Virus record (IMG/VR): IMGVR_UViG_3300010001_000023
Location: 62,001 to 126,000 of that record
Length of the DNA stretch: 64,000 nt
Direction: 5' to 3' (one strand)
Source: an uncultured virus (IMG/VR IMGVR_UViG_3300010001_000023)
Lineage: Duplodnaviria; Heunggongvirae; Uroviricota; Caudoviricetes
Shown: piece by piece, positions 30,615-55,979 of the stretch
How the letters are laid out: the number at the start of each line of letters is the position of its first letter
How positions within the stretch are numbered: position 1 is the first letter of the stretch
Position numbers and translations under genes: made by a program
The notes under the pieces: generated by a model
Databases searched by the model: none
Seen by the model: only the letters and a program-made list of their open reading frames with translations
What the model was told of the DNA's origin: nothing

Positions 30615-33600
30615 TTACTTCAACAACCCTTTGTTTCTTAAAGCAGTAGCTAAATCATCTGTTAGACTATTCAATTCTTCTTGTGTTCCAGAGAAATTCT
30701 GAATAGTGACTAATGTTTGAGGAGCAAGATTGTTGTTTGTTGTGATTGTCTTAACAGTGTTCGCACTTGCAGGTAGCTTAGAAGCGATTACTGTTGGAAG
30801 AGTAGCACTAATAGATGGTGCTAGGGCGTTTACAGCTTTAATAGCAGCAGAAGTAATGTTAGTCTTAGTGGTTGGTTCTAATTTAGAATTAGGTACTGGA
30901 TTTCTACTTTTTTCATCTAATTTAAGACTACCAGCAACATCAGACAGACTACCGAAAGTTTCTTGAAGTGCGTCAAGTATATTTTGACTTGCTGAATTAC
31001 CGATTTCCTTCATATGTTCATTCACATATTTAGCTAAATCTTCAATCAATGTTTTATACTTGCTAACTTGTCCTTCCATTAATTCTTCTTGCATCTGATT
31101 AAATTTACGAGTATCCTCTAATAGATCTTGATACGCTGTATTCAAATCCTCTTTTTGTTTATCAATCTGTTCGCTCTTATCTTCTAATTCTTCCTGTAAT
31201 GCTTCTTTGCGATCTTCTCTAGCTTTGTTTGTTAAATAAGAATCATAGTCTTCCTGCTGTCTCTTAAGCTCTTCTTGCAACTCTTTGACTTTAGCTTGAT
31301 TGGAAAGACTATCATCACCAGAACGTTGAGAAATTTCATTCTTCAATTTGTTCATTGCTTCGGTACGTTCTTTAATGTCCTTAGCATACTGATCGTCTTG
31401 AGCTTCCTCGTCAATCAATTTCAATTTTTTATTTATCATTTTTTCGTATTCTTTGTACTCATCATCATAAGCCTTAGTAGCAAGCTCTAGTTGTTTTTGA
31501 TAAATAGTTTTAATTGAATTGATAACTCCGTTTGCCAAATCATATCTGACTTGATGGACTGACTTATTGCTTTCTTTAATAGCATTGTCAATATTCTCTA
31601 TCTCATCACGCAATTTTTTAGCTTGTGTTGGTAGGCTCTTATAAAGCTTCAATTGGTCTTCAAGTTTCTTTTTATTCGATTCAAGAGCCTTACGTTGTTC
31701 AACCAATCCTTTTAATTGAGCCACTTGATTATCTCTAAATAAATCAATTTGACCGTCTTGATTGATAAATGAACTCATGTATGAAGCTTTTTCATAAGCA
31801 ATAGTTGCTTTCTTCAACGCTTTAGCATTTTCATTCAACTGGTTTTCTATATCTTGATTAGCGACTTCAATTTTAAATTCATAAGCAGCCATTTTAGCAT
31901 CGGCATAAGCTAAATTTAAAGAATTCATTTGCTCTTTGATAGTCTTTTGTAACTCGTAATTTTTCTTAGCATTTGCATATTGAATTTTTAATTGTTCAAT
32001 CGTAAACTTGATTTGAGCAGCACGTTTTTCTTCTTGTGAAGCTTGAGCTTTAGTATATTTTAATATTTGATTTGCTTGTTTTGGATCTTCTAAATCCAAC
32101 TTAGCTTTCTTATTAGAAATATCTTTCATTGTCTTCTCGTAAGAATTAGTGGCTTTGTTATAATCCGACATGATTTGCTCGTAAATAGAAGCAGCAATCG
32201 CAGCATTTCCTTGACGTATATCAGCACTAATATCTCTAATAGCCTGCTGTGCATCAGCCTTAGCTCTTCTTAGTTCATCACCATATACTGTGTCAGCAGC
32301 GAAAAGTTTCTTAGTCTTTTTATTTTTAAGAGCTTTATCAATATAATTAATTTTACTTGATTCAAAGCCTTTTTCTAAAGACTTGCTTGCTTGTAACTGT
32401 TTATTTTTATTTCTCCAAGCATCATTTTCCGTTCCTTTTTCAGCAGCAATTTTATCAAGTTCATACTGAAGTTTAGCTGTTTGATAAGACTGTAACTCTT
32501 TAAGGTGGTCATATTGTTCAACGTGAGACTGAGCAATCTTGAAAAGATTATCATTTTTAGCTTTGCTATCGTTCAATGACTCAAGTTGTAAATCTAATAA
32601 TTTACCTCTCGCTTCATCTACTTTTTGTTTCATAGCTTCGGCTTCGTTATTTGCATTGATAAGTCTTTCTATCGCAGCGAGACGCTCTTCTTCAGCCGCA
32701 TTAGCATACTCAACGTCTACGCCTGACATAGAACCATATATCGGTTTTCCAGATATGCTATAATTGGAACCAGCGACTTTGTGATAACCTAATGCTTCAG
32801 GGTTAACTGCTGTATTGTTGTTGTAACGTGTCTGTTTACCTTTAGAAACTTGTAAATGCAAATGTGTTCCACTGGAGTTACCTGTTGAACCTACTTGACC
32901 GACAATTTGCCCAGCTTTTACTTTTTGCCCAACTTTAAATTTAGAAGGAACTTTCATATGCATGTACGTGTAAGTGTTCTTGCCATCAAAAATAGTAATC
33001 TGATTACCAGCACCATACGGATCCCAGTCTGAAGACATAACTACACCTGAACGAGCAGCACGAATACTAGCACCAGATTTCACACCATTGTAATCAAAGC
33101 CTGAATGTTTGCCACCACCATCAGAAGCGTTGTAATGTCCAAATTGTTTGTCTCTACGGTACATTCCATCAATAAGAGATTTTCCAATAGTTCCAGCTAC
33201 CGCAGTCGATACTGAGATAGGTTGTGACATACCATACATTTTATAATACTTATCAGCTTCGGAATTACGTTTTGATTGGTTAGGGATTCCTGCACGCTCA
33301 TATTTAGACTGGAAGGTTTGAGCTGCTGATTTAGCAGTCTTTGTTTTCTTCAATGCATTATAAGCGTTAGTCTCAGTAGTCATTAATTCTTTCCAGAAGA
33401 AGTCTAACTGTACATTAACATCCTTCCAAGACTTACCACGTTCTTTAGCATATTTATATAAAGCATTTCGTCTAGCACCATCCCATTGGAATAGTCCTTT
33501 TCCGCCTTTGTATGGATCTTTATACTGTTGAGCAGAAGCTTTAAATTGAGATTCTTGTGAAACGTTACCCATGATACCAGCAGCTTGAGCAGAAGAAAAC

Positions 33601-36600
33601 CCTTTTGAAATTAAGAAATTCCATAGTTTAGCTTGTGTTGAACTTCCTTTAGCTGAAACTTTTCCACTTTTAGAACCTTCTAAGTTATTGGCTGTGTATT
33701 TATAATAAGGAACATTAGTCTCTTGATTAATCAAGCCATATTCTTTGATGTTTCCACTCTTGATTTGTTTTTCAAGAGCAGTCATCTGTTTATCTAAATT
33801 CTTTGTTTTTTGGTCAATTAATTTGTTTTCTTCTCTGAGAGATTCACGATATTTAGCTGACCATGTAGCATACTTCTGAGTCTGTAGTTGTTGTTTTTCT
33901 AACTTATTATTAAGTTTATCCATTGACAAACCTAATTTATCAGCAACATAAGTAGTAACTGTAAAGGTCTTGTAGAGTGTTTCAACTTCAACGCCAGCTT
34001 TTTTCATAGCCTTTGCTGTTTTGTCTGCTTCATCTCCAGCTTTTTTAAGTCCTTTGCCAGCTTTACCTCCAGCACTTCCTGTATCACCTAAACCAGAAGC
34101 TGAATCTTGAGCTTGTTTACCAACATCTCCTAAAGATTTACCCAATGCGTCAGATACAGAAGATAGATTTTTACCTGTGTTTGTAGCATTTTTCCATTGG
34201 GCGTTCATTTTAAGCATGTTGTCTGTCATGACTTTAGGCAAGTAAACAGCACTTGTTTTTAAATTAGCTCCTAATAAATCATCACCTAAAGCACCAGCAC
34301 TCATTGCAGACACCATACCAGAAGTATAATCTGCTCCGACTGAATATTTACCTTTTTTGCTTGATTTTAATTCTTTGGCTTCTGCTTTTCTTATTTGAGC
34401 CATTTTATCATCAAACTCAGCAAAAGCTTCATTTGCGATACGACCAAGTTCATTGATATGATCTGCCCATTTTTTGCCTAGTAAATTTAAAACATGCGTC
34501 TCTAAAGCATCTTTTTTCTCAGCTAAAGTGTTATAGTTTGATAAATCTACATCATAGCTATCCGCAATAGAATTTACTAAAGCTTCTTGTTGATCAGCAG
34601 TACCATTGCTATATATATCAGCAATACCAGCTTTTAGTTGAGCTAAACTTTTATAGTTTTCACTATCAATGTTATAGGTTTTTCTAAGATATTCAGCTAA
34701 TTCTGTCCCTTGACCTGCAACAGCTTTGTAATAAGCTTCGCTTGCCATAGTTTTATCTTCAAGAGTTTTTAGATAATGATTCTTTTCTTTATCTCTTTCA
34801 GAAATCAAGAAGTTTGTTAGTGCTTCTTCATTTCCAGCTAAACCAAGAATTTTTTCTCCATAAACGTCAACTAAATCCGCCATAGTATTCCAAGATAGTT
34901 CCCCACCTTGCATTTCACCTATAGCTTTACCAACTAATTCTTGATTTGAAGCAACTTCTCTCATTGAATTAGCTAAATCTTCATTAGCCTTAATTTGATT
35001 ATCAGTAGACTCAGCATTTTCATTATTAATAGCTGTGCCATCCGCAGTAGCTTTATTCTTTTTCTTAATAGCTTCTGTTGTACTGATTGTTACTTGACCT
35101 TGTTTTTCAACTTTAGCTGCTAATCCTGTCTCTGCTTCAATTCCTGATTCTAATGAAGCTCTAAGTTGAGCAATACCATCTTTGCTCATATGAGCTGCTT
35201 CGGCAGATTTAAGAATAGCTGTGGCTACTTTTTCATAAGCAGCTTCTAAAGCAGGTAAAGCATCTGTACGTTCAGCTTGTGTTTTAGCAGTCTGAAATGA
35301 TTTTAAAGCTGACTCATAAGATTTCATCTTCGTAGCAAAACCACTATCATTAATAAGGCTACTATTCAAAGCATTAAACTGTTCTCTAGCATTTTTAACG
35401 TTGTCAGAAGTTGTTTGTATTGCTATTGAAACAGATTGCAAAGCAGAAGTACCAGCTTGACCAAATGAATATGAACCCGATTTCATTTGAGCCATTTGAG
35501 CATTAAATATTGTTACTTCAGCTTGAATAGCTGCTCTTTCAGCATTGCTTTGCATTTGTTTTTGACCGATATATTTCGATAATGCGTCCTGTTTAACTGT
35601 TAAACGGTTAACTTCGTCTTTGTCATGTGCAGAGGTTGCTTGAGATAATTGTTCGTTAACAGTTTTTAAAACTTTTTGAGCATCGGTTAGCGATTTTACT
35701 TTCGCAATTTGATTATCAATTTTACTGTTTGTTTGTGTGTTAGAGTTAGATTTTAATTCTGTTTCAGGATCGTATCCGTCAAACCAGCCTTTTCCACCTA
35801 TTTTATTAGCTTCTTTTTCTTTTGCCTTACTTAGTTCTTGAGCGTCTGAAATAGCTTTTTGTTGAGCAATTTGTTTATCAATCTCAAGTTGTTGTTTCAT
35901 TAAATCAATACGTTGTTTTAATACCTCTGCATTAGCATTTACAGTATTTCCATATTGACCTTCACTTGATACTAACTCTGGGAAAATATTAGCAATTTGA
36001 CCTACAACATTTTTGTATTCTTGAGCTTCATCACTATTAAATGATTTACCAGAATTCATTTTTTGTTGTAAAGTGTCATAGCTTGAAATCATCTTATCAA
36101 TTTCAGAAGAACCCATGCTTTGTAGAGCTTGTTTAGTTTGTAATTGCTGTTGTTCATATTCTTCCGCAGCTTGACTCGTTGCGTTAAAACTTCCTGTTAA
36201 TTTTTCTAGTCCAAACGATATGCCAGTCATTACAAGACCGACACCAGTTGCCGCAAGTAATCCTCTTAAAGCACCTTTAAGCGTTACAGCAGCGGCTGAA
36301 GCCACACGAGAAGCAGTTGCATTAGCAGTTGTTGCAACTGTAGTTTTATTAATAGAACCTTGTAAAAGAAGGGAAGACATAGAAACTTCTTTTTGAGCTT
36401 TTGATAATTGATAATTAGCTGTAGTTGCTGATTTTGCTTGAGAAGCCTGTTTATCATACACACCTGAATTATTAAATTGTAATTGTGAAGAGGCTCCTGT
36501 TGGAACTACATGTGTTACATTACCTAAATTATCTTTTACTTTGTTTAGATTATTTGCTTCGATAATGAGGTCAGACATACTTTGTCTAGCATCACTAAAC

Positions 36601-38888
36601 CCACTTCTCACATTTCTTGAGAATAATGAAGCAGCAGCACCAACTACACCAAACAATGGGGCAGCACTACCTAATTGAGTAATACCTGCTGTTAGTCCTG
36701 TCATCAAGTCTGTAAATAATCTGATTCCATCTAATATACCAGACTTTAAGAAAGCATCGCCTAACGCAAGTGAAAATTGTTCTAAAGATACTTTAGCTTT
36801 ATTGATTTTTGCTTCAACTGATTCCATGTATTTAGCGTTCTCTTGGAGTGAAGAACCAGCGGAATTTTCAGAAGTTTGCTCAATTTGTTTATATAAACCA
36901 TTGACTTGTCCCAAGTCATCAAGCAATACTTGCATACGTTGATAGTGATATGTTCCGCCAAGACCACGAACAATAGCAGCTTGTTGGTCTTTATCAATAC
37001 CCTTAATCTTTTGTGCGACTTCTTCTAATAAAGCCATAGCACCTTTAAGTTGTCCATTGGAATCTTTCATGTCGATTCCTAAGTCTTCTATAGTAGCTTT
37101 TCCTGTTCCAACGTAAAGCTTAGGAAGGACTGCTTTCATAAAGTTACCGATTTCATCCCCTGATTGCTTAGTTTTAGCAGTCAAAGCACCGATAACCGCA
37201 TTAGTTTGATCAAATGTTAATCCCATAGATTTAGCAGTGGAACCAGCTTTAGCTTGACCCTGTGCTAATTTTTCTACGGTAGTAGCATATTTGTTAGAGA
37301 TTTCGTTTAATGAGTCAACTTGTCTCATCGCATCTTGTCCATTGGTTTCCCACTGAGCAGACATAGAAGTTAAATACTCAGCAGCTTGTTTAGCGTCAAT
37401 CTCACCAACGTTAGCAGCAATTAAAGCAGCATTAGCAAATTGAGGTAGCTCTTTACCTTTTGTACCTTGTCTAGCAAATTCAGCATATACATCTAATGCA
37501 CTTGAAATCGTTTGACCAAATTGTAAAGCTGCATCATTTGCATTGTTAAACACTTCCGCTAAGTTTGTATCTGCTGACATAACTTTAGCAAGAGTAATCA
37601 TTTTACTATCAATTTCAGTAATGGTATCTATAAATAATCTACCTGATTGAATCGCACCAAAGAATAGGGTAGAAGCACCCATCCAAACAGGGAACTTAAT
37701 CATAGCTTGTCTAAATGATTCTACAAATCCTAATTGAGAACGAGTAGCTCTTTCAGCTTCAGCTTTAATACCTCTGAATTGTGTTCTGATCTGTTCCATT
37801 TGATAAGCAGCATTAGTATCAAATTTCTTTGATTCACTACCTAATCCTAACAAATCAGATTTTAAAGCATTTGTAGCTCTCTTATTAATAGAATCAGCCA
37901 TTCTACGTTCATTACGCTCAATTTCAGCCAACAAACTTTGTTGCACTCTTAATAATTTATTTTGCTGTTCATAATCTTTAAGAATGACTTGTGCTGCATT
38001 ATGCTGAGCATCAAAATCATCTTTGGTAAGATGTTTACCTAGACGTTCATCACCAATCTTTTTGTAAATAGCTAGTAATTGTTCAGCTTCAATAGAACTT
38101 AATTTACCATTATCTCTTAATTTAAGGATATTTTGACTCTGTTTATCAATAGCTCTGCTAATATCTTCATGTGTTTTTAACTGAGATTTATATTCAGAAT
38201 CTAATGACTTAATCTCAGATAAGTTAAGACTACCATCATTATTACCCGTAAACTTATAAGATTGCTGTCCTGTTTTATTTCCAGCAGAGTTTACTTTGTT
38301 AACTGTGATTAAATAATCTTTTAACTCTCGATTAGCGTTTTCAGTTTTTTGAGTAGTGTAAGACATTCCATCAGCCATCGTCTTACTCAACATTTTTTGA
38401 GCTTCTGCGATATTACGGAAGGATCTACCTAAACCTATAACTTCTTCTTGTGTCTCTTTAATATTTCCCGCACTAGAAGGAATGTTGGCTGCTGAAGTTG
38501 TGTTCTTAACACTATTTTCAATAGCTTTTTGTGATTTTTTAATTTCATTAGGATTAACTCGTGCGTTAATATCAGCACTAATGCTTCTATGATAGTTTTT
38601 CTGTATATCATTTAATGCTTTATTGATATTTTTTACACTTTGAGTCTTGTTAATATCTAAATCTAATTTAACCTTTCGTAAATTTCCATCTTTATTAATG
38701 GAATCCACAATTTGGTTAGCTGATACTCGTAAAGCATTTTTACTTGACGATGTTGAATTAGCTTCTAAATCTACTCTAATTCTTTTTAGATTCTTCTCTA
38801 TCTGGGTGATAGTTTCTTCAATTTTTCTTTTAGAGGAGCTTGAATCTATTTCTAGGGTGCTTAATATCCCTAAGTTAAAATCTGCCAA
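30615..38888 (-). CDS. Tape measure protein with phage-tail lysozyme and M23 peptidase domains
   Basis: About 2760 aa, helical; AAGIMGNVSQES..GLFQW lysozyme motif; HSGFDY, YMHM, GNSSGTHLHL M23 motifs; likely TTG start at 38888. Confidence 0.93.
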   Translation of the reverse strand: MADFNLGILSTLEIDSSSSKRKIEETITQIEKNLKRIRVDLEANSTSSSKNALRVSANQIVDSINKDGNLRKVKLDLDINKTQSVKNINKALNDIQKNYHRSISADINARVNPNEIKKSQKAIENSVKNTTSAANIPSSAGNIKETQEEVIGLGRSFRNIAEAQKMLSKTMADGMSYTTQKTENANRELKDYLITVNKVNSAGNKTGQQSYKFTGNNDGSLNLSEIKSLDSEYKSQLKTHEDISRAIDKQSQNILKLRDNGKLSSIEAEQLLAIYKKIGDERLGKHLTKDDFDAQHNAAQVILKDYEQQNKLLRVQQSLLAEIERNERRMADSINKRATNALKSDLLGLGSESKKFDTNAAYQMEQIRTQFRGIKAEAERATRSQLGFVESFRQAMIKFPVWMGASTLFFGAIQSGRLFIDTITEIDSKMITLAKVMSADTNLAEVFNNANDAALQFGQTISSALDVYAEFARQGTKGKELPQFANAALIAANVGEIDAKQAAEYLTSMSAQWETNGQDAMRQVDSLNEISNKYATTVEKLAQGQAKAGSTAKSMGLTFDQTNAVIGALTAKTKQSGDEIGNFMKAVLPKLYVGTGKATIEDLGIDMKDSNGQLKGAMALLEEVAQKIKGIDKDQQAAIVRGLGGTYHYQRMQVLLDDLGQVNGLYKQIEQTSENSAGSSLQENAKYMESVEAKINKAKVSLEQFSLALGDAFLKSGILDGIRLFTDLMTGLTAGITQLGSAAPLFGVVGAAASLFSRNVRSGFSDARQSMSDLIIEANNLNKVKDNLGNVTHVVPTGASSQLQFNNSGVYDKQASQAKSATTANYQLSKAQKEVSMSSLLLQGSINKTTVATTANATASRVASAAAVTLKGALRGLLAATGVGLVMTGISFGLEKLTGSFNATSQAAEEYEQQQLQTKQALQSMGSSEIDKMISSYDTLQQKMNSGKSFNSDEAQEYKNVVGQIANIFPELVSSEGQYGNTVNANAEVLKQRIDLMKQQLEIDKQIAQQKAISDAQELSKAKEKEANKIGGKGWFDGYDPETELKSNSNTQTNSKIDNQIAKVKSLTDAQKVLKTVNEQLSQATSAHDKDEVNRLTVKQDALSKYIGQKQMQSNAERAAIQAEVTIFNAQMAQMKSGSYSFGQAGTSALQSVSIAIQTTSDNVKNAREQFNALNSSLINDSGFATKMKSYESALKSFQTAKTQAERTDALPALEAAYEKVATAILKSAEAAHMSKDGIAQLRASLESGIEAETGLAAKVEKQGQVTISTTEAIKKKNKATADGTAINNENAESTDNQIKANEDLANSMREVASNQELVGKAIGEMQGGELSWNTMADLVDVYGEKILGLAGNEEALTNFLISERDKEKNHYLKTLEDKTMASEAYYKAVAGQGTELAEYLRKTYNIDSENYKSLAQLKAGIADIYSNGTADQQEALVNSIADSYDVDLSNYNTLAEKKDALETHVLNLLGKKWADHINELGRIANEAFAEFDDKMAQIRKAEAKELKSSKKGKYSVGADYTSGMVSAMSAGALGDDLLGANLKTSAVYLPKVMTDNMLKMNAQWKNATNTGKNLSSVSDALGKSLGDVGKQAQDSASGLGDTGSAGGKAGKGLKKAGDEADKTAKAMKKAGVEVETLYKTFTVTTYVADKLGLSMDKLNNKLEKQQLQTQKYATWSAKYRESLREENKLIDQKTKNLDKQMTALEKQIKSGNIKEYGLINQETNVPYYKYTANNLEGSKSGKVSAKGSSTQAKLWNFLISKGFSSAQAAGIMGNVSQESQFKASAQQYKDPYKGGKGLFQWDGARRNALYKYAKERGKSWKDVNVQLDFFWKELMTTETNAYNALKKTKTAKSAAQTFQSKYERAGIPNQSKRNSEADKYYKMYGMSQPISVSTAVAGTIGKSLIDGMYRRDKQFGHYNASDGGGKHSGFDYNGVKSGASIRAARSGVVMSSDWDPYGAGNQITIFDGKNTYTYMHMKVPSKFKVGQKVKAGQIVGQVGSTGNSSGTHLHLQVSKGKQTRYNNNTAVNPEALGYHKVAGSNYSISGKPIYGSMSGVDVEYANAAEEERLAAIERLINANNEAEAMKQKVDEARGKLLDLQLESLNDSKAKNDNLFKIAQSHVEQYDHLKELQSYQTAKLQYELDKIAAEKGTENDAWRNKNKQLQASKSLEKGFESSKINYIDKALKNKKTKKLFAADTVYGDELRRAKADAQQAIRDISADIRQGNAAIAASIYEQIMSDYNKATNSYEKTMKDISNKKAKLDLEDPKQANQILKYTKAQASQEEKRAAQIKFTIEQLKIQYANAKKNYELQKTIKEQMNSLNLAYADAKMAAYEFKIEVANQDIENQLNENAKALKKATIAYEKASYMSSFINQDGQIDLFRDNQVAQLKGLVEQRKALESNKKKLEDQLKLYKSLPTQAKKLRDEIENIDNAIKESNKSVHQVRYDLANGVINSIKTIYQKQLELATKAYDDEYKEYEKMINKKLKLIDEEAQDDQYAKDIKERTEAMNKLKNEISQRSGDDSLSNQAKVKELQEELKRQQEDYDSYLTNKAREDRKEALQEELEDKSEQIDKQKEDLNTAYQDLLEDTRKFNQMQEELMEGQVSKYKTLIEDLAKYVNEHMKEIGNSASQNILDALQETFGSLSDVAGSLKLDEKSRNPVPNSKLEPTTKTNITSAAIKAVNALAPSISATLPTVIASKLPASANTVKTITTNNNLAPQTLVTIQNFSGTQEELNSLTDDLATALRNKGLLK

Positions 38889-38979
38889 TATTCTTACAAC
38901 TCCTTGTATTCTCGTATTCTCGATCAATTATTCAAGTCCACCCATAATTCATTTATTAAAGGTGGAATTCAGTAATTGA

Positions 38980-39996
38980 TTAAAGATCAATGTCTAATTC
39001 TTCCAATGCTTCGGCATCATCTGAAAGATTATAGATTTCTGTTGTTTCTGTGGATTCATGATGTGCAAAATATTTTGATACAATTTTCATTTTCACACCT
39101 TGTTCCAATAAATAAGTAATACAACTTGCTTTGAAGATATGAGGTTGGATTCTTCTTCCTAAAATATGGGATAATGTATTTTCGCAGAAATAATTCGCCC
39201 ACGATGCGTTCATCACTCTAGGATTCTCTTTGTCACCGATTGTAAAGATATATTCATGATCATATCCTCTTTTTTCAATCCAAAGCTCAATATACCTTAA
39301 AGCTTCAGGGTAGAAGAGATATTCCAAACGTTTGCCTTCTTCGCCTCTCCCTTTTCCCCTTATAGGTAAGTGTTTTTTGTACCCACCTTTTTTAAATTCT
39401 TGTGATAAAATGCTTGTTTTAAACTGTACGATTTCTGAACGTCTCGCACCAACATTAAAGGCTACTGCTAACCATGCCATACCTAAATAATCTTCATCAC
39501 TCTCTAAAGCTTGCATCATAATGTCATACTCTTCTTTAGAAATTTTAACCTTATCATAAGTCTGAGTTTTCAAGACTGGGGGAAGTCCTTGCATAAAATT
39601 ACGAAAAGTTTCAAAAATCAATTCACCATTATTATCTGTATAATCATCCACCCAATAGTTTTCTATATATTGACATAGGGAAGATACCGCAGACTTCTTT
39701 AAATTGATACCTGAAGATGACATTCCTCTGTCCACTCGTAAATAATTCAAATAACGAATCGCATCACGTTTTTTAATCTTGTTAAATGGTTTGTTGTTGG
39801 CACTGTTTTTAATAAACCAACCAAACTGCTTTAAAGCAGAGATATATTGTTTCTCTGATTGTTTAGATAATTGAGCCGATTGTAAGAATTCTTCAACAGC
39901 TTCTTTATATAAAGGATCAACCTGTGACCACATTTCATCTGTCACGTCAGGTAATTTTTTAGCTCTCTCACGTAACATATTCTTCTCAATTGTCAC
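38980..39996 (-). CDS. Tyrosine recombinase/integrase-family protein within the tail operon
   Basis: GARRSEI, RGKG, PHIFKAS, AHHESTETTEIY. Confidence 0.88.
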   Translation of the reverse strand: MTIEKNMLRERAKKLPDVTDEMWSQVDPLYKEAVEEFLQSAQLSKQSEKQYISALKQFGWFIKNSANNKPFNKIKKRDAIRYLNYLRVDRGMSSSGINLKKSAVSSLCQYIENYWVDDYTDNNGELIFETFRNFMQGLPPVLKTQTYDKVKISKEEYDIMMQALESDEDYLGMAWLAVAFNVGARRSEIVQFKTSILSQEFKKGGYKKHLPIRGKGRGEEGKRLEYLFYPEALRYIELWIEKRGYDHEYIFTIGDKENPRVMNASWANYFCENTLSHILGRRIQPHIFKASCITYLLEQGVKMKIVSKYFAHHESTETTEIYNLSDDAEALEELDIDL

Positions 39997-40010: not shown

Positions 40011-40481
40011 CTAATAAAATTTAATGTTAATTCCACGTTTCATTAATCCATCATGCAACGCTTGTTTCACAATATTTCTACCAATTCCTTTGGCTAAGAA
40101 ATCAACTGCTTCTTCTGTATATGGTCTTGCTGGCATACCCGTTAAAGGATTACCAGCAAATCCATCTTCGCCCTCGATTAACTTATTAATTAGTACATCT
40201 TCAAAATCTTCTGTTGCACCTGTTGCAATATTAACCATTACAAATTCAGTAAGTTCTTTAGATTTCTTCGGATCTAGCATTACAATATTGTCTGGATCAG
40301 CTAAACCTTCATTAGTTCCACGTCTTTTATATTTGATAGGATTATAGACTTCATATACATTATCATGTTGGAATTCCAACCATGTATCTCTAACCACAGG
40401 GAACAATTCTTTCTCTATAACTTCTTCAATGGCATATTGAATATAAAGCTCCATCTCTTTTAGATTTTTGAAAGTAGGCAT
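40011..40481 (-). CDS. Putative tail completion protein (HK97 gp10-like)
   Basis: GMPARPYTEEA motif; position in the tail operon. Confidence 0.55.
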   Translation of the reverse strand: MPTFKNLKEMELYIQYAIEEVIEKELFPVVRDTWLEFQHDNVYEVYNPIKYKRRGTNEGLADPDNIVMLDPKKSKELTEFVMVNIATGATEDFEDVLINKLIEGEDGFAGNPLTGMPARPYTEEAVDFLAKGIGRNIVKQALHDGLMKRGINIKFY

Positions 40482-40489
40482 TTAATCAC

Positions 40490-41017
40490 CTATTCATTTT
40501 CTAATTGCTTACTAAATTTTTCTCTTGCTTTTTCTAATTCTTCTTCATGTTTATTCAGGAATTCAAATGCAGCACTTTTAGTCGCTGTTTCAGTAGCAAA
40601 CATATTATTGATTTTCTTTAACTCTTCAAATAGGAATACGTCATTGATAATTTCTTCAAATAGTCCTGTTTCATATAACGCATTATAGTAGGGGAGTAAT
40701 GCACGTAGTGTTTTAGCTTTTTTCATTTGTACACCAAAGTGTGTAAACTTTTTAATAGTAAGGAAGTACCAAAAATAAATAATACTTGTTTCATCTTTAG
40801 TGATAGATTCAATCACTTTCTTATCGTCTTTATTTGTGGAATTTAGTAAAGCAACATACTCTTCTATAACTTCTTTAATCTTTGATGTAGCAAAGTAAGG
40901 GTAGAATTCCATATCTTTACCATTTGATAAGGTATGTGTAGCAAGTTCTTCGTATTTACTAGCTTCAGCTAGAATATCTTCAAACTGAATTACCTCTGTA
41001 TTTTTAAATTCACTCAT
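40490..41017 (-). CDS. Putative tail assembly chaperone
   Basis: Between the major tail and tape measure genes; strong RBS. Confidence 0.5.
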   Translation of the reverse strand: MSEFKNTEVIQFEDILAEASKYEELATHTLSNGKDMEFYPYFATSKIKEVIEEYVALLNSTNKDDKKVIESITKDETSIIYFWYFLTIKKFTHFGVQMKKAKTLRALLPYYNALYETGLFEEIINDVFLFEELKKINNMFATETATKSAAFEFLNKHEEELEKAREKFSKQLENE

Positions 41018-41102
41018 ATTCCATTCTCCTTTTAATCCGTGTTGATTTTTTATTTTTGTTTAACTTACATAAGCAATATATAAATTAAACAAAAATAAAA
41101 AA

Positions 41103-41124
41103 ACAGGTAGAATAAACTACCTGT
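41103..41124 (-). terminator. Terminator after the major tail gene and its extension
   Basis: ACAGGTAG-6 nt-CTACCTGT followed by a T run on the - strand. Confidence 0.75.
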
Positions 41125-41208
41125 CTCTTATATTTCAATAGTAACTGAATCGCTATTTACTTCAACCACGTTAACCTTTAAAGGTTCCTGTTTCGCAACA
41201 GGATTACT

Positions 41209-41928
41209 TCATACTTCTTCGTGGTCTACGAATACGAAGTTACCCATTTCACGAGTTTTAGTGTCTAATGAAGCTTTAAGAGTCATTTCAGGAGTGAAGG
41301 CTGAACCAGCTTCAAATCCCATTTCAAACTCAGAAGATGGAGTAACGTTTTCAAACAAGATGTAAACATCTTTAACGATTGCTTCAGTTTCCATATCGTA
41401 TGCATAAGTAAATAACTGAGCTTTGTATTTCTCAGCGAACTTATCAGAACGCATTGGAATTGTTTGACCAGTTACATCTTTTTCGTAGACAGCTGCAACA
41501 GTAGAACCTACTTCTAAATCTGGTACAGTAAGTTCACCAGCAGTAGCTTCACCAGTAAAGTTTTTACCTTCTTTATCTGAAACAACGACTGAACCAGAAT
41601 AAGCTGAATCTTTCAATGTTACTTTACCGCCAGCTTCAACTTCAACACGGTCAGTTTGCAATACTTTAACTGTTTGGTCTTCAAGTACTTTAACACCTTG
41701 TGTAGCAGCTAACCAGTTAGTACTGAATGTAGCATCTGTTACTGAGATTTCGATTTCTTTACCAGATTTAATTGTGTAAAGTGTACCGTTACCGATACCA
41801 CCTTTAATTGCTTCTTCTTCAACTGTTTGGCTGATAGAAGCACTTTGAGTTGTGCCAGTAGCGATAGTAAAACCATCACTTTTTCTTTTTAATGTAACAT
41901 CTGCTGTATCTTGAATATATAATGGCAT
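41209..41928 (-). CDS. Major tail (tube) protein; possible read-through form ending at 41128
   Basis: 239 aa, acidic and beta-rich, strongly biased codons, RBS GGAGG; position after the neck genes. Confidence 0.8.
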   Translation of the reverse strand: MPLYIQDTADVTLKRKSDGFTIATGTTQSASISQTVEEEAIKGGIGNGTLYTIKSGKEIEISVTDATFSTNWLAATQGVKVLEDQTVKVLQTDRVEVEAGGKVTLKDSAYSGSVVVSDKEGKNFTGEATAGELTVPDLEVGSTVAAVYEKDVTGQTIPMRSDKFAEKYKAQLFTYAYDMETEAIVKDVYILFENVTPSSEFEMGFEAGSAFTPEMTLKASLDTKTREMGNFVFVDHEEV

Positions 41929-41967
41929 ATTCGTATTTCCTCCTATAAAATGTTTTTATAATTTATT

Positions 41968-42786
41968 TTATTTAACGTAACCGCTCATTGAATTTGTGAA
42001 TTGTTCAAGTGACTGATCTTTATTCCTGTTTTTGTTTGTACTAATATTAGTAGTCCATGCGACAGGTTCAACCTCATCTGATACAGTTCTGAATAGCGTT
42101 CTTTCACTGTTCGCAATAAACAAGCCGATACGTTGAAATGAATGTTGTAATTGCAATGAATTCCATTTAGCTATATCTTTGTAATCAATCCCCATGTGTA
42201 CTGCACATGAAGAAATCATAGTAGATAAATTAGGCGTTTCATCGTCTTCTTTTGATTTAGTTTTTGGCTTATCCTCTCTTTTATAGAGGACAGGGTTAAT
42301 CTTTGAAGTAATCTCAGATACACCATTTAGCTGTAACAATATACGTCTATAACTATCAAAAGCTTCATCTGAAAGATTGATAATAAAATCAGCACTCTTC
42401 ATTAATAAATCCTTGTTATATTCTTCTTCGTTCTCGTAATCTTCTTTAGTATCTTCTAAGTAATAGAACTTACAATAACAAGTAATAATAATATAATGAT
42501 TTAAAATTTCAGTGAAATATTCTTTTAACAGTGATAAGAATGTATGTGAATTATTTAATTCTGTCAGCAAATTAAAAACTTCTTTATCTGACTGACCTGT
42601 TTCAGCTTGTTGCCCTTTACCTAATTCTGCGAGTACCTTCTTCTTATCCATTGCAATAACACCTAAAGAAGTTGATCTTTGTATATACTCCTGTATGGAT
42701 AATGGCTTCATCTCACCAAACTCAGTAATGATAGGTAGACCTAATATCGCTCTTTCTTCAATAGATGAATTATTCATATAAATCAC
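41968..42786 (-). CDS. Hypothetical virion morphogenesis protein
   Basis: 272-aa ORF in the neck/tail operon. Confidence 0.6.
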   Translation of the reverse strand: MIYMNNSSIEERAILGLPIITEFGEMKPLSIQEYIQRSTSLGVIAMDKKKVLAELGKGQQAETGQSDKEVFNLLTELNNSHTFLSLLKEYFTEILNHYIIITCYCKFYYLEDTKEDYENEEEYNKDLLMKSADFIINLSDEAFDSYRRILLQLNGVSEITSKINPVLYKREDKPKTKSKEDDETPNLSTMISSCAVHMGIDYKDIAKWNSLQLQHSFQRIGLFIANSERTLFRTVSDEVEPVAWTTNISTNKNRNKDQSLEQFTNSMSGYVK

Positions 42787-44732: not shown

Positions 44733-45272
44733 TTAAGAATTCAAAACTGAGTGTACTTTATCAATCTTAAGAGCTTCCTCAAAAGCCTTGATTAAGTGTA
44801 TGTCTGCGATTTCACCATTTGCGTATCTTTGTCTTAATACAGTGGCTACTACTTCTTTAGTAGTATCAGTTAAAGTTGGGATAGTTTCTAATATTTCATT
44901 TGGATCTGACTCGAATAAAAGATCAATTTTATCTTCTAACAAGATACCAGTCATTTCTTTTTCAAGACCTAGATATTTAACAACATCCTCTTCTTCAATC
45001 CAAAGCCATCCATTCTTAAACACATTTCGATCTGTATTTTTCAAAACAGTTAAATCTTCGACAGTCATCCAGTCGGAATCCATAAAATTTGATAGTTCTA
45101 AATAACCGTTACCTTTTTTAGCTGAATAATAGAAACTAGAAGTAGTCGCATTATAGACTAATACTTCAGTGTCTTTACTCACTTGCGGTCTTTTTTTGGT
45201 AACTGGCTCAGTTGTTTTTTCTACTTTATTTTCTACTGTTTCTTCAGTAGCAGTTGTTCTTTTAACAGCCAT
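44733..45272 (-). CDS. Hypothetical virion protein
   Basis: 179 aa, directly after the capsid gene terminator. Confidence 0.6.
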   Translation of the reverse strand: MAVKRTTATEETVENKVEKTTEPVTKKRPQVSKDTEVLVYNATTSSFYYSAKKGNGYLELSNFMDSDWMTVEDLTVLKNTDRNVFKNGWLWIEEEDVVKYLGLEKEMTGILLEDKIDLLFESDPNEILETIPTLTDTTKEVVATVLRQRYANGEIADIHLIKAFEEALKIDKVHSVLNS

Positions 45273-45334: not shown

Positions 45335-46336
45335 TTATGATAATTCAATGACACCAAATTTAGCAGCAGATACTACAGACACACCAGCGATTTGGATGAT
45401 GTCGTGTTGCATTTGCATATCTTGACGGTTGTTTTCTGTACCATTAGCTTCACGAACGAAAGTTTGACCTAAGTAAACTTTAACGATTTTTTGAGCAGCA
45501 GCAGGTAATACAAGGATTTGCTTGTCATTAAGAGCGAACTCATCAGTAAGAGCTTTGTGGAATTGTGGTAATTCCAATACTTGGTATCCATCAACCATGC
45601 CAAAGAATCCTTTAACATTGCGTTCTCCAGCTTGAGCATCTGAGAAATATTCAGGTTTCAGTTTACGAAGTGCAGCTTTTGTACCAACTAATAAAGCTTG
45701 TCCATTGTCAGCTTCCACATGGTCAGCAACTTCCAGAGCTTTTTCACGGATTGCATCTACACCTGAAGAAGAAGCGATTGACTGCTTGTAAACACCAGTT
45801 AATCCATCAACAGAAGCAGCAAATGCTTGAGCAATACGAGAGAAGTATTCGTTAACGATAGAATCAGCAGCACGTTGAACGAATACTGACCAATCTGTTT
45901 GACCAGCTAAGAAACGAACTAACTCTTCGTATGTACCTACAGAAATAGCTTCAACTTTGATAGAGAAGTCTTCTGAATCTAAACGATGACGAGTTACGTT
46001 TCCGTTACCCAATGAAATAGTATTAACAGGGAAAAGTGACAAATCGTCAACGTGGAACATATTTTCTTCGTTCAAAGCGATAGATTTAAATTCAGCAAAT
46101 TGACCAAACACTTCTTTTGTACGATCATTAACGATAGGTGTAATAGTTTCTTCGATGAAAGCGAACAATTCATCTTTATGTTTACGGTAAGCCTGCATTG
46201 TTAATTTGTCAGTACCAAAACGAGTAATCATTGCTTGACGGATTACTTCAGAACCATCTTTCGCTGAGTATTGTTGTACGTTGCCTTTAGCTACATCTTT
46301 AGCTAAAGCAACAATGTTATTATCTAGTAAAGTCAT
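45335..46336 (-). CDS. Major capsid protein
   Basis: 333 aa, highly biased codons, strong RBS; order portal-protease-decoration-capsid as in SPbeta-like phages. Confidence 0.85.
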   Translation of the reverse strand: MTLLDNNIVALAKDVAKGNVQQYSAKDGSEVIRQAMITRFGTDKLTMQAYRKHKDELFAFIEETITPIVNDRTKEVFGQFAEFKSIALNEENMFHVDDLSLFPVNTISLGNGNVTRHRLDSEDFSIKVEAISVGTYEELVRFLAGQTDWSVFVQRAADSIVNEYFSRIAQAFAASVDGLTGVYKQSIASSSGVDAIREKALEVADHVEADNGQALLVGTKAALRKLKPEYFSDAQAGERNVKGFFGMVDGYQVLELPQFHKALTDEFALNDKQILVLPAAAQKIVKVYLGQTFVREANGTENNRQDMQMQHDIIQIAGVSVVSAAKFGVIELS

Positions 46337-55740: not shown

Positions 55741-55745
55741 TGAAG

Positions 55746-55818
55746 TCAGAATACTAGGATTTGAACCTAGACTACTACATCCCAAATGTAGCGTGTTACC
55801 AAATTACACTATATTCTG
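55746..55818 (-). tRNA. tRNA-Pro(UGG)
   Basis: Acceptor CAGAATA/TATTCTG, anticodon arm CTACA-TTTGGGA-TGTAG, T arm CTAGG-TTCAAAT-CCTAG; CCA not encoded. Confidence 0.92.
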
Positions 55819-55906: not shown

Positions 55907-55979
55907 TGTGAGATAGCAGAATCGAACTGCTGTAATCCGAACCACAATCGGATGTATTAACCACTATACTAATCTCACC
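55907..55979 (-). tRNA. tRNA-His(GUG)
   Basis: G-1, acceptor GTGAGAT/ATCTCAC, anticodon arm TCCGA-TTGTGGT-TCGGA, T arm AGCAG-TTCGATT-CTGCT. Confidence 0.92.

Follow-up and report, generated by a model that had tools for sequence, protein, structure and literature searches.

An in-frame 26-codon extension behind a UGA stop in an SPbeta/SPR-type tail tube gene: a candidate read-through isoform

The tail tube gene of an uncultured tailed phage, located on the minus strand of a 64,000-nucleotide stretch of its DNA (hereafter, the window; all coordinates are window positions), ends in a UGA stop followed by A, behind which the same frame stays open for 26 codons up to a TAA stop adjoining an intrinsic terminator. 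With moderate confidence, these codons are considered to encode a real C-terminal appendage of the tube protein, which would be reached by read-through of the leaky UGA-A in a fraction of the translation events. Such an interpretation had been put forward in an earlier note on this DNA made from the letters alone, and it is partly supported by the comparisons with related phages reported here. The features of the gene end are collected in Table 1. The window has a G+C content of 33%, and an identical stretch was found in two more public records (L006 and L016; an IMG/VR record and a 128,864-bp metagenome contig), which possibly represent the same data.

Table 1. Features at the 3' end of the tail tube gene (window positions)
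Feature	Position	Strand	Basis
Shine-Dalgarno-like AGGAGG, 5' of the tube gene ATG	41939..41944	-	direct sequence reading
Tail tube protein (TTP) core ORF, 239 aa, MPLYIQ...VDHEEV	41212..41928	-	ORF reading, homology and fold
First stop UGA, followed by A (41208)	41209..41211	-	direct sequence reading
Candidate read-through extension, 26 sense codons in frame 0, SNPVAKQEPLKVNVVEVNSDSVTIEI	41131..41208	-	open frame, coding-like codons
Hairpin CCUGUU-GCGA-AACAGG, six unpaired bases from the UGA	41187..41202	-	RNAfold
Small hairpin AACCU-UUAA-AGGUU, perfect palindrome	41173..41186	-	RNAfold
Second stop TAA	41128..41130	-	direct sequence reading
Intrinsic terminator, hairpin of 13 pairs plus T-run, beginning at the second stop	41098..41129	-	consensus scan

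The 26-codon in-frame stretch between the TGA and the TAA had been described exactly in the earlier note, in its coordinates as well as in its wording. Reading of the minus strand from 41211 to 41208 confirmed the UGA-A context, and a consensus scan, which placed the terminator at 41129..41098 (-), bore out the claim that it comes after the second stop and not after the first. The gene itself ends in GAA GAA GTA TGA and contains neither of the frameshift motifs X_XXY_YYZ and CCC_stop at this point. Beyond the TGA, 10 open codons follow in the +1 frame and one in the -1 frame. The window was thus examined for both a shift site and an alternative-frame ORF, has neither, and does not belong to the class of genes extended by frameshifting.

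The label of major tail gene, which the earlier note had also used, proved to be correct, since both homology and fold identified the product as a tail tube protein. The protein matched phrog_2729 with an E value of 9e-55, and PF27173 is the precomputed annotation of its family. When the PDB was searched with phmmer, chains of the SPR tail tube protein were matched with an E value of 1.3e-47 over query residues 3-233; the identity to this solved tube protein is 40%. An AlphaFold2 model was obtained with a pLDDT of 72.6, and its top Foldseek matches were 8ygm_A and 8xkn_B (E about 1e-20, TM 0.74-0.81), with chains of DSR2-TTP complexes further down the list. Model and matches support the tube-protein fold, which consists of a D1 beta-sandwich and an inserted D2. 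A tblastn search with the protein retrieved 33 phage records at 35-58% identity, all of them SPbeta-like (25 from Bacillus, 4 from Mammaliicoccus and 4 from Staphylococcus), and the SPbeta counterpart of the gene is yomU, encoding YomU. Downstream of the gene, two genes in the chaperone position and a 2770-aa tape measure ORF are located, and the order of ORFs around it is the same as in the Mammaliicoccus, Staphylococcus and Bacillus records. The gene encodes the major tail (tube) protein, of the SPbeta/SPR type. An overlap like that of lambda G/GT, indicative of a tail-chaperone frameshift, was looked for between 40490..41017 and 40011..40481, and none was found. A Pfam search of four longer family members (331-356 aa) and of P0005 returned no domain.

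The openness of the 26 codons is by itself not beyond chance and is common in this genome. At least 26 open codons follow the stop in 11 of the 53 crude ORF-genes of the window, in 31 of the 167 crude genes (19%) across the 128,864-bp genome and in 7 of the 44 genes having at least 78 nt of non-coding DNA behind them. Moreover, open frame-0 runs are present behind the stop in L064 (27 codons) and L078 (25 codons), two relatives in which they clearly have no meaning, since they pass into and beyond the terminator to finish at TAA-T. Both observations agree with the view that the approximately 80 nt from the stop to the terminator are a plain untranslated spacer that lacks a frame-0 stop by luck, and so does the absence of homology between the extension and the tails of relatives, the phage's own genome or the best 150 of the 178 library matches. 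This explanation is nevertheless improbable in view of codon usage and of the position of the terminator.

The codon-usage log-odds of the extension against off-frame triplets was 15.3. Real coding windows of 26 codons gave a mean of 14.0 (sd 6.2), among which the extension stands at the 58th percentile, and open intergenic 78-mers gave a mean of 1.4 (sd 7.1). The score of the extension was reached by 6% (off-frame background) or 4% (intergenic background) of the open intergenic 78-mers, which in turn make up only 11.8% of all intergenic 78-mers, so that the joint frequency of an open spacer with such a gene-typical score is below about 1%. The other two frames of the same stretch scored -36 and -49. 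The G+C content of the extension is 0.346, compared with 0.318 in coding and 0.272 in intergenic DNA.

As for the terminator, its stem lies 4-28 nt past the last coding stop in every relative having a terminator: at 14 nt in long forms, at 24-28 nt in short forms without an extension, at 6-26 nt past the stop of the extension in forms with a -1 shift site, and at 4 nt in L018. In the window, the stem lies 85 nt past the TGA and 4 nt past the TAA. If the gene truly ended at its first stop, its spacer would have three times the length observed in any relative that does so; in addition, the open frame stops exactly at the terminator. The combination of codon usage, openness and terminator placement exceeds chance. 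Since the codons are coding-like and the placement of the terminator fits the second stop only, the extension points to coding sequence.

The extension itself has few recognizable features. In the AlphaFold2 model, residues 240-266 form a weak beta-hairpin with a pLDDT of 41-53. A Pfam search with the 266-aa read-through product gave no match in the extension and hence no Ig-like or FN3 domain, for which 26 aa would be too short. Smith-Waterman comparison with the tails of nine relatives, using 2000 shuffles, revealed no significant similarity (p 0.05-0.73). Two resemblances noted by eye, an alignment of the extension as a linker plus the first Big_2 strand and a shared acidic, hydrophobic C-terminus, were dropped on account of the same shuffle values. 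When the extension was compared with the genome of the phage by tblastn, its own locus was the single match, and hence there was no paralogue.

To place the gene end within its family, 94 loci with relatives of the tube gene were collected and reduced to 64 distinct gene-end types, with the partial matches L015 and L025 left out. In 48 of the 64 types (long types), a variable tail is encoded directly past the conserved core; these tails comprise approximately 30-50 residues from a conserved glycine anchor to the stop and approximately 20-40 residues past the core. All 48 long types end in TAA, and in 37 of them it is TAA-T. In the remaining 16 types (short types), the stop comes a few residues past the core, as in the window. 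A TGA stop was found in the window only, the other 63 gene-end types ending in TAA or TAG.

In nine of the 16 distinct short types, a shift site is located at the stop and is followed by an extension ORF; five of these sites are of the -1 kind and four of the +1 kind. The -1 heptamer is G_GGA_AAG in the Mammaliicoccus phages (L001 and L002) and A_AAA_AAG in L027, L028 and L043; it is located at the stop or one codon ahead of it, and the -1 ORF behind it extends for 28-137 codons. In L027, L028 and L043, this ORF contains a Big_2 Ig-like domain (E 1e-13 to 3e-14). The +1 types have CCC_TAA followed by +1 ORFs of 48, 30, 26 and 21 codons in L013, L018, L085 and L023, respectively, of which the ORF of L023 is doubtful, as it enters the start region of the next gene. 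No extension was found in 6 of the 16 short types, and the window itself makes up the sixteenth. It had been stated in the earlier note that tail-tube extensions are usually made by frameshifting, and within the YomU-type family this holds insofar as these nine short relatives combine a canonical shift site with an extension ORF.

The shift sites of the Mammaliicoccus phages are well preserved. Four records represent three distinct sequences, with a DNA difference of 10-13% between the cores; all of them have the same heptamer, and the -1 ORF remains open for 29-31 codons despite in-frame indels and a TAG-to-TAA change. In the deposited records, only the short form is annotated, and small ORFs on the opposite strand have been placed so that they overlap the extension or lie immediately past it. 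We infer frameshifting in the tube genes of the relatives from these sequence signatures, none being annotated in the records examined.

A quick maximum-likelihood tree was built from 59 rows with the tail columns kept (L015, L025, L016, L026 and L091 were left out). The window was grouped with the five -1 rows and with four direct-tail rows of the Staphylococcus type in a clade of 100% SH-aLRT support, and the next row outside this clade was the +1 type L018. Judged by their sequences, members of one clade thus hold, at the same position, a directly encoded tail, a predicted -1 frameshift or an in-frame UGA. The TGA of the window stands exactly at the end of the core, which is the place of the shift sites in its relatives. 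Because sister phages appear to reach such extensions by frameshifting, a version with an in-frame UGA is plausible as a third route, and the read-through interpretation of the window is strengthened by them.

The conservation of the TGA and of the codons behind it was examined with Logan contigs of four runs, which were compared with positions 40900-42000. One informative piece was obtained (run X4), a 245-nt contig of low depth from an abattoir metagenome of another study, which spans 41160-41404 and has 11 differences from the window, 9 of them listed. In this contig, the TGA and the following A are unchanged, and the first 16 extension codons form an open frame with no stop and no indel. 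The 64 core codons contain two synonymous changes and M>I among the nine listed differences, and in the extension the listed differences amount to S>T, a synonymous change of V, A>S (two bases) and K>Q (two bases). Counted over these nine differences, the extension has 6 substitutions in 49 nt and the core has 3 in 193 nt; five of the six extension substitutions are crowded into 7 nt at the top of a hairpin. The faster change of the extension would fit relaxed constraint as well as a fast-evolving linker. Since the contig comes from another study and keeps the TGA, the latter is not due to misassembly and is not confined to one lineage. The pieces from the other three runs (X2, X3 and X5) cover other parts of the tube gene only, and the matches of X3 at 41046-41119 are low-complexity, AT-rich sequence.

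Comparison of homologues had been proposed in the earlier note, with conservation of the TGA and of the downstream codons as the expected sign of read-through and a sense codon in its place as the sign of a simple mutation. As to the first, on a single 245-nt fragment, the TGA is kept and 16 extension codons are open, but residues change in three of the first six extension codons. As to the second, a phmmer search against 1.84 billion representatives gave 178 matches with E <= 0.001, and among the best 150 of these, none aligned beyond query residue 243; thus, no homologue with a sense codon and the same tail was present among these 150, nor did they give any independent indication that the extension peptide occurs as protein. 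The nearest protein among the matches listed was 62% identical to the tube protein. No match was obtained for the region by megablast against phages, and a search of genome contigs for relatives found none with the single protein and only three distant loci with an alignment. A tblastn search against plasmids returned only four Bacillus matches of at most 41% identity, and there was no RNA run among the runs listed as carrying the sequence.

These data also bear on the explanation of the gene end as a relic, according to which a sense codon at the core-tail junction of an ancestor with a directly encoded tail was changed to TGA, so that the 26 codons are now a decaying 3' UTR and any read-through is incidental and unselected. 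The direct-tail forms are the majority in the family, and four of them stand in the well-supported clade of the window; the read-through product (266 aa) would be about as long as the direct forms (263-265 aa); and a short protein would work, as the natural short forms do. The extension has no detectable similarity to other tails, changes faster than the core in the X4 contig and shows no measurable constraint. Furthermore, the split between the window and the contig is shallow, as indicated by only two synonymous changes in the 64 core codons among the differences listed, so that an unselected frame could easily still be open.

On the other hand, a relic would not account for the position of the stop, which falls exactly on the first codon past the core, where relatives have their recoding site, and not elsewhere in the tail. 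Nor would it account for the choice of TGA-A, the leakiest type of stop, in a family whose other 63 gene-end types use TAA or TAG; a random nonsense mutation in an AT-rich tail rich in Lys, Glu and Gln would presumably yield TAA more often. Two lineages, sampled in different studies, have the TGA in common, and the comparison with the best 150 library matches brought to light no sense-codon form with this tail. The relic explanation, a nonsense mutation having been named as the alternative in the earlier note, is the serious rival; it is regarded as rather unlikely, and the reading of the 26 codons as a translated appendage is preferred to it.

The stop context is consistent with the preferred reading. 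In the phage, TGA ends 15 of the 167 crude genes, and TGA-A ends only 3. UAA is preferred in highly expressed bacterial genes; UAAU is described as the strongest termination signal, and UGA with a following A as a stop that tRNA-Trp misreads with particular ease (PMC5289835). In B. subtilis, read-through of UGA is reported to amount to approximately 6% (PMC6316719, citing Lovett 1991), and the high-copy virion genes of SPP1 all end in UAA (PMC6316719). Given this preference for UAA, a TGA-A stop is odd in the gene of the most abundant tail protein, unless its leakiness is tolerated or wanted. By analogy, the UGA-A of the tube gene can be described as a leaky stop in a favourable context, the context effect being known from published work (PMC5289835). 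In the earlier note, the capsid and decoration genes had been cited as ending in TAA, and the two nearby genes putatively concerned (45335..46336 and 44733..45272) do end in TAA-T; a search of the PDB gave no match for their products.

The extension region is predicted to fold slightly better than expected (RNAfold, z = -1.96), which is only marginal, 7 of 200 shuffles folding as well. The hairpin at 41187..41202 is weaker but kept in the X4 variant (-7.5 vs -9.2 kcal/mol). With the terminator included, the fold of 41092-41214 has z = -5.4. A role of the hairpin behind the UGA in read-through is speculation; to our knowledge, no role is established for a hairpin of this kind in bacterial read-through. 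Its location six unpaired bases behind the UGA might call to mind dedicated decoding of the UGA, by selenocysteine insertion at a SECIS-like hairpin, by a phage suppressor tRNA or by genetic code 4. However, in a scan of 40950..41350, no Rfam family, SECIS included, came near the gathering score, and the only tRNAs in the phage genome are tRNA-Pro(tgg) and tRNA-His(gtg), with no suppressor tRNA and no tRNA-Sec. In addition, TGA serves as a stop in this phage, because it ends 15 crude genes of normal length and because code 11 yields an intact tape measure ORF of 2770 aa. An assembly error at the TGA is contradicted by the independent X4 contig. Dedicated decoding or an assembly error is accordingly regarded as very improbable.

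According to the preferred reading, most ribosomes would stop at the UGA and give a tube subunit of 239 aa, a length normal for the family's short forms, and in a few per cent of cases a near-cognate tRNA, by precedent tRNA-Trp, would decode the UGA. These ribosomes would translate the 26 codons as well and terminate at the TAA next to the terminator, and the resulting 266-aa subunit would bear a flexible tail where the SPR tube protein has a disordered C-terminal segment. Judging from the 2770-aa tape measure and from the tail dimensions of SPbeta (quoted in bioRxiv 10.1101/2021.11.22.469490), the tube probably consists of several hundred subunits; at a few per cent read-through, roughly ten of them per tail would be extended. 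The outcome would be the same as that which sister phages appear to achieve by -1 or +1 frameshifting at the stop. It is from the DNA that we infer the occurrence of read-through, its frequency, the presence of the long form in virions and selection for it. By analogy with SPP1 gp17.1*, the tail may be a dispensable surface decoration.

It is tentatively proposed, with somewhat less than even confidence, that members of the YomU/SPR TTP family acquire such an appendage by four interchangeable routes, namely, direct encoding, -1 frameshifting at G_GGA_AAG or A_AAA_AAG, +1 frameshifting at CCC_UAA and programmed read-through of UGA-A, in which the hairpin located a short way past the UGA may assist. 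Recoding is classically used to produce minor, extended isoforms of the major structural proteins of phages. For tailed phages, frameshifting or in-frame decoding is named (PMC5009743), and for the RNA phage Qbeta the textbook mechanism is read-through (PMC8067240). In open-access full text, no report was found of a tailed-phage tube protein extended by read-through, and no mention of frameshifting in an SPbeta-like tube gene. If the interpretation is true, the window would hold a case of selected stop-codon read-through making an isoform of a structural protein in a tailed dsDNA phage. Use of the UGA would also make the clade a natural experiment with one appendage position and four decoding routes, and it would indicate directly that what counts is the ratio between short and long subunits and not the mechanism that sets it. 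Gene callers miss all such extensions. Moreover, since TTP is the trigger of the DSR2 defence system, an unnoticed second isoform would bear on work with DSR2.

Among the known systems, SPP1 is close to the window in several respects. Its two tube proteins, gp17.1 and gp17.1*, are made from one gene by a +1 frameshift at CCC_UAA, and gp17.1* is a minor extended isoform (approximately 3:1) whose extension is reported to be non-essential (PMC6316719). Both cases concern the tube protein of a siphophage with a Gram-positive host and an event at the very stop, which in the window is a putative one. The CCC_TAA arrangement of SPP1 is present in the window's relatives L013, L018 and L085. Unlike SPP1, the window has its extension in frame 0 and without a shift site, so that it would be reachable by stop read-through only; the stop of the tube gene is UGA and not UAA, and the extension comprises 26 aa with no recognizable domain, compared with 87 aa with an FN3 motif in SPP1.

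The route proposed for the window resembles that of Qbeta A1, in which the UGA at the end of the coat gene is read as Trp approximately once in 15 times, which gives a few extended subunits per particle (PMC8067240). In both, a UGA ends the gene of a major virion protein, read-through being predicted from DNA for the window and experimental for Qbeta. However, Qbeta is an ssRNA phage of E. coli, and its extension is folded, approximately 200 aa long and needed for infection.

Ig-like extensions obtained by -1 or +1 frameshifting or in frame are known from T3, A2, A118, A500 and PSA (Atkins et al. 2016, PMC5009743). As would be the case in the window, they are optional surface appendages on major structural proteins, with a decoding route that is seemingly interchangeable, and exactly this arrangement, with Big_2 in the -1 frame, is present in the relatives L027, L028 and L043. 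In the part of that review concerned with these extensions, frameshifting and in-frame decoding are named and stop read-through is not; the extension of the window also differs from them in being too short for an Ig fold.

The closest structural counterpart is provided by SPR and SPbeta, the cores of which are homologous throughout to that of the window. In the cryo-EM structure of the SPR TTP, residues 242-264 form a disordered C-terminal tail (PMC11850899), at the same position as residues 240-266 of the window's predicted read-through product. In SPR and SPbeta, this tail is encoded directly and the stop is TAA-T, whereas in the window a UGA stands between the core and the putative tail.

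The extension behind the UGA of the tail tube gene was compared with the X4 contig, a 245-nt metagenome contig from another study that covers the first 16 extension codons and retains the TGA. Five of the six differences in the extension were packed into 7 nt (window 41191..41197), where the hairpin 3' of the UGA has its loop and upper part. This clustering looks like the result of one multi-base event and not of independent substitutions.

The tape measure gene of the window is very long, which implies an unusually long tail. A gene for a tyrosine recombinase (integrase; Pfam Phage_integrase) was located within the tail module, with the tape measure gene on one side and two genes at the tail-chaperone position on the other; the SPbeta-like records of Mammaliicoccus and Staphylococcus likewise carry an integrase annotation in this position. 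Neither a lambda G/GT-like overlap nor an in-phase slippery heptamer was found in the chaperone-position pair, and the second gene is preceded by a stop in its own frame immediately 5' of its ATG. The two tRNA genes of the window are the only ones in the 128,864-bp phage genome.

Features of the window and candidate frameshift sites in related tube genes (locus coordinates are those of each collected locus)
Feature	Location	Strand	Remarks
Tape measure ORF	window 30615..38927	-	2770 aa
Integrase gene	window 38980..39996	-	338 aa
Chaperone-position pair	window 40011..40481, 40490..41017	-	phrog_16506, phrog_7383
tRNA-Pro(tgg), tRNA-His(gtg)	window 55745..55818, 55907..55978	-	
Candidate -1 site and extension	L001:2205-2306		
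Candidate -1 site and extension	L002:2205-2312		
Candidate -1 site and extension	L097, L098		same place as in L001/L002
Candidate -1 site and extension	L027:2217-2591		
Candidate -1 site and extension	L028:2217-2582		
Candidate -1 site and extension	L043:2211-2639		
CCC_TAA and +1 ORF	L013:2189-2347		
CCC_TAA and +1 ORF	L018:2207-2311		
CCC_TAA and +1 ORF	L085		stop at 2236

Among the related tube genes, one (L014, NZ_JBHVTC010000023.1) is of the Bacillus SPbeta type, with a C-terminal tail matching that in IMG/VR Bacillus-type loci, and lies in a record titled Streptomyces sp.; this contig may be a contamination or wrongly labelled.

Unannotated candidate -1 frameshift sites, G_GGA_AAG or A_AAA_AAG, were found at the tube gene stop in published Mammaliicoccus phages and IMG/VR contigs. 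The predicted extensions comprise 28-137 codons, three including a Big_2 domain. In the public records, only the short form of the tube gene is annotated, and small opposite-strand "hypothetical" ORFs are drawn across the extension or just past its end.

In a Terribacillus prophage and metagenome or IMG/VR contigs, the tube gene ends in CCC_TAA, followed by a putative +1 extension ORF, acidic or proline-rich. This arrangement is the same as that of SPP1 gp17.1*, the tube protein extended C-terminally by a +1 frameshift at CCC_UAA.
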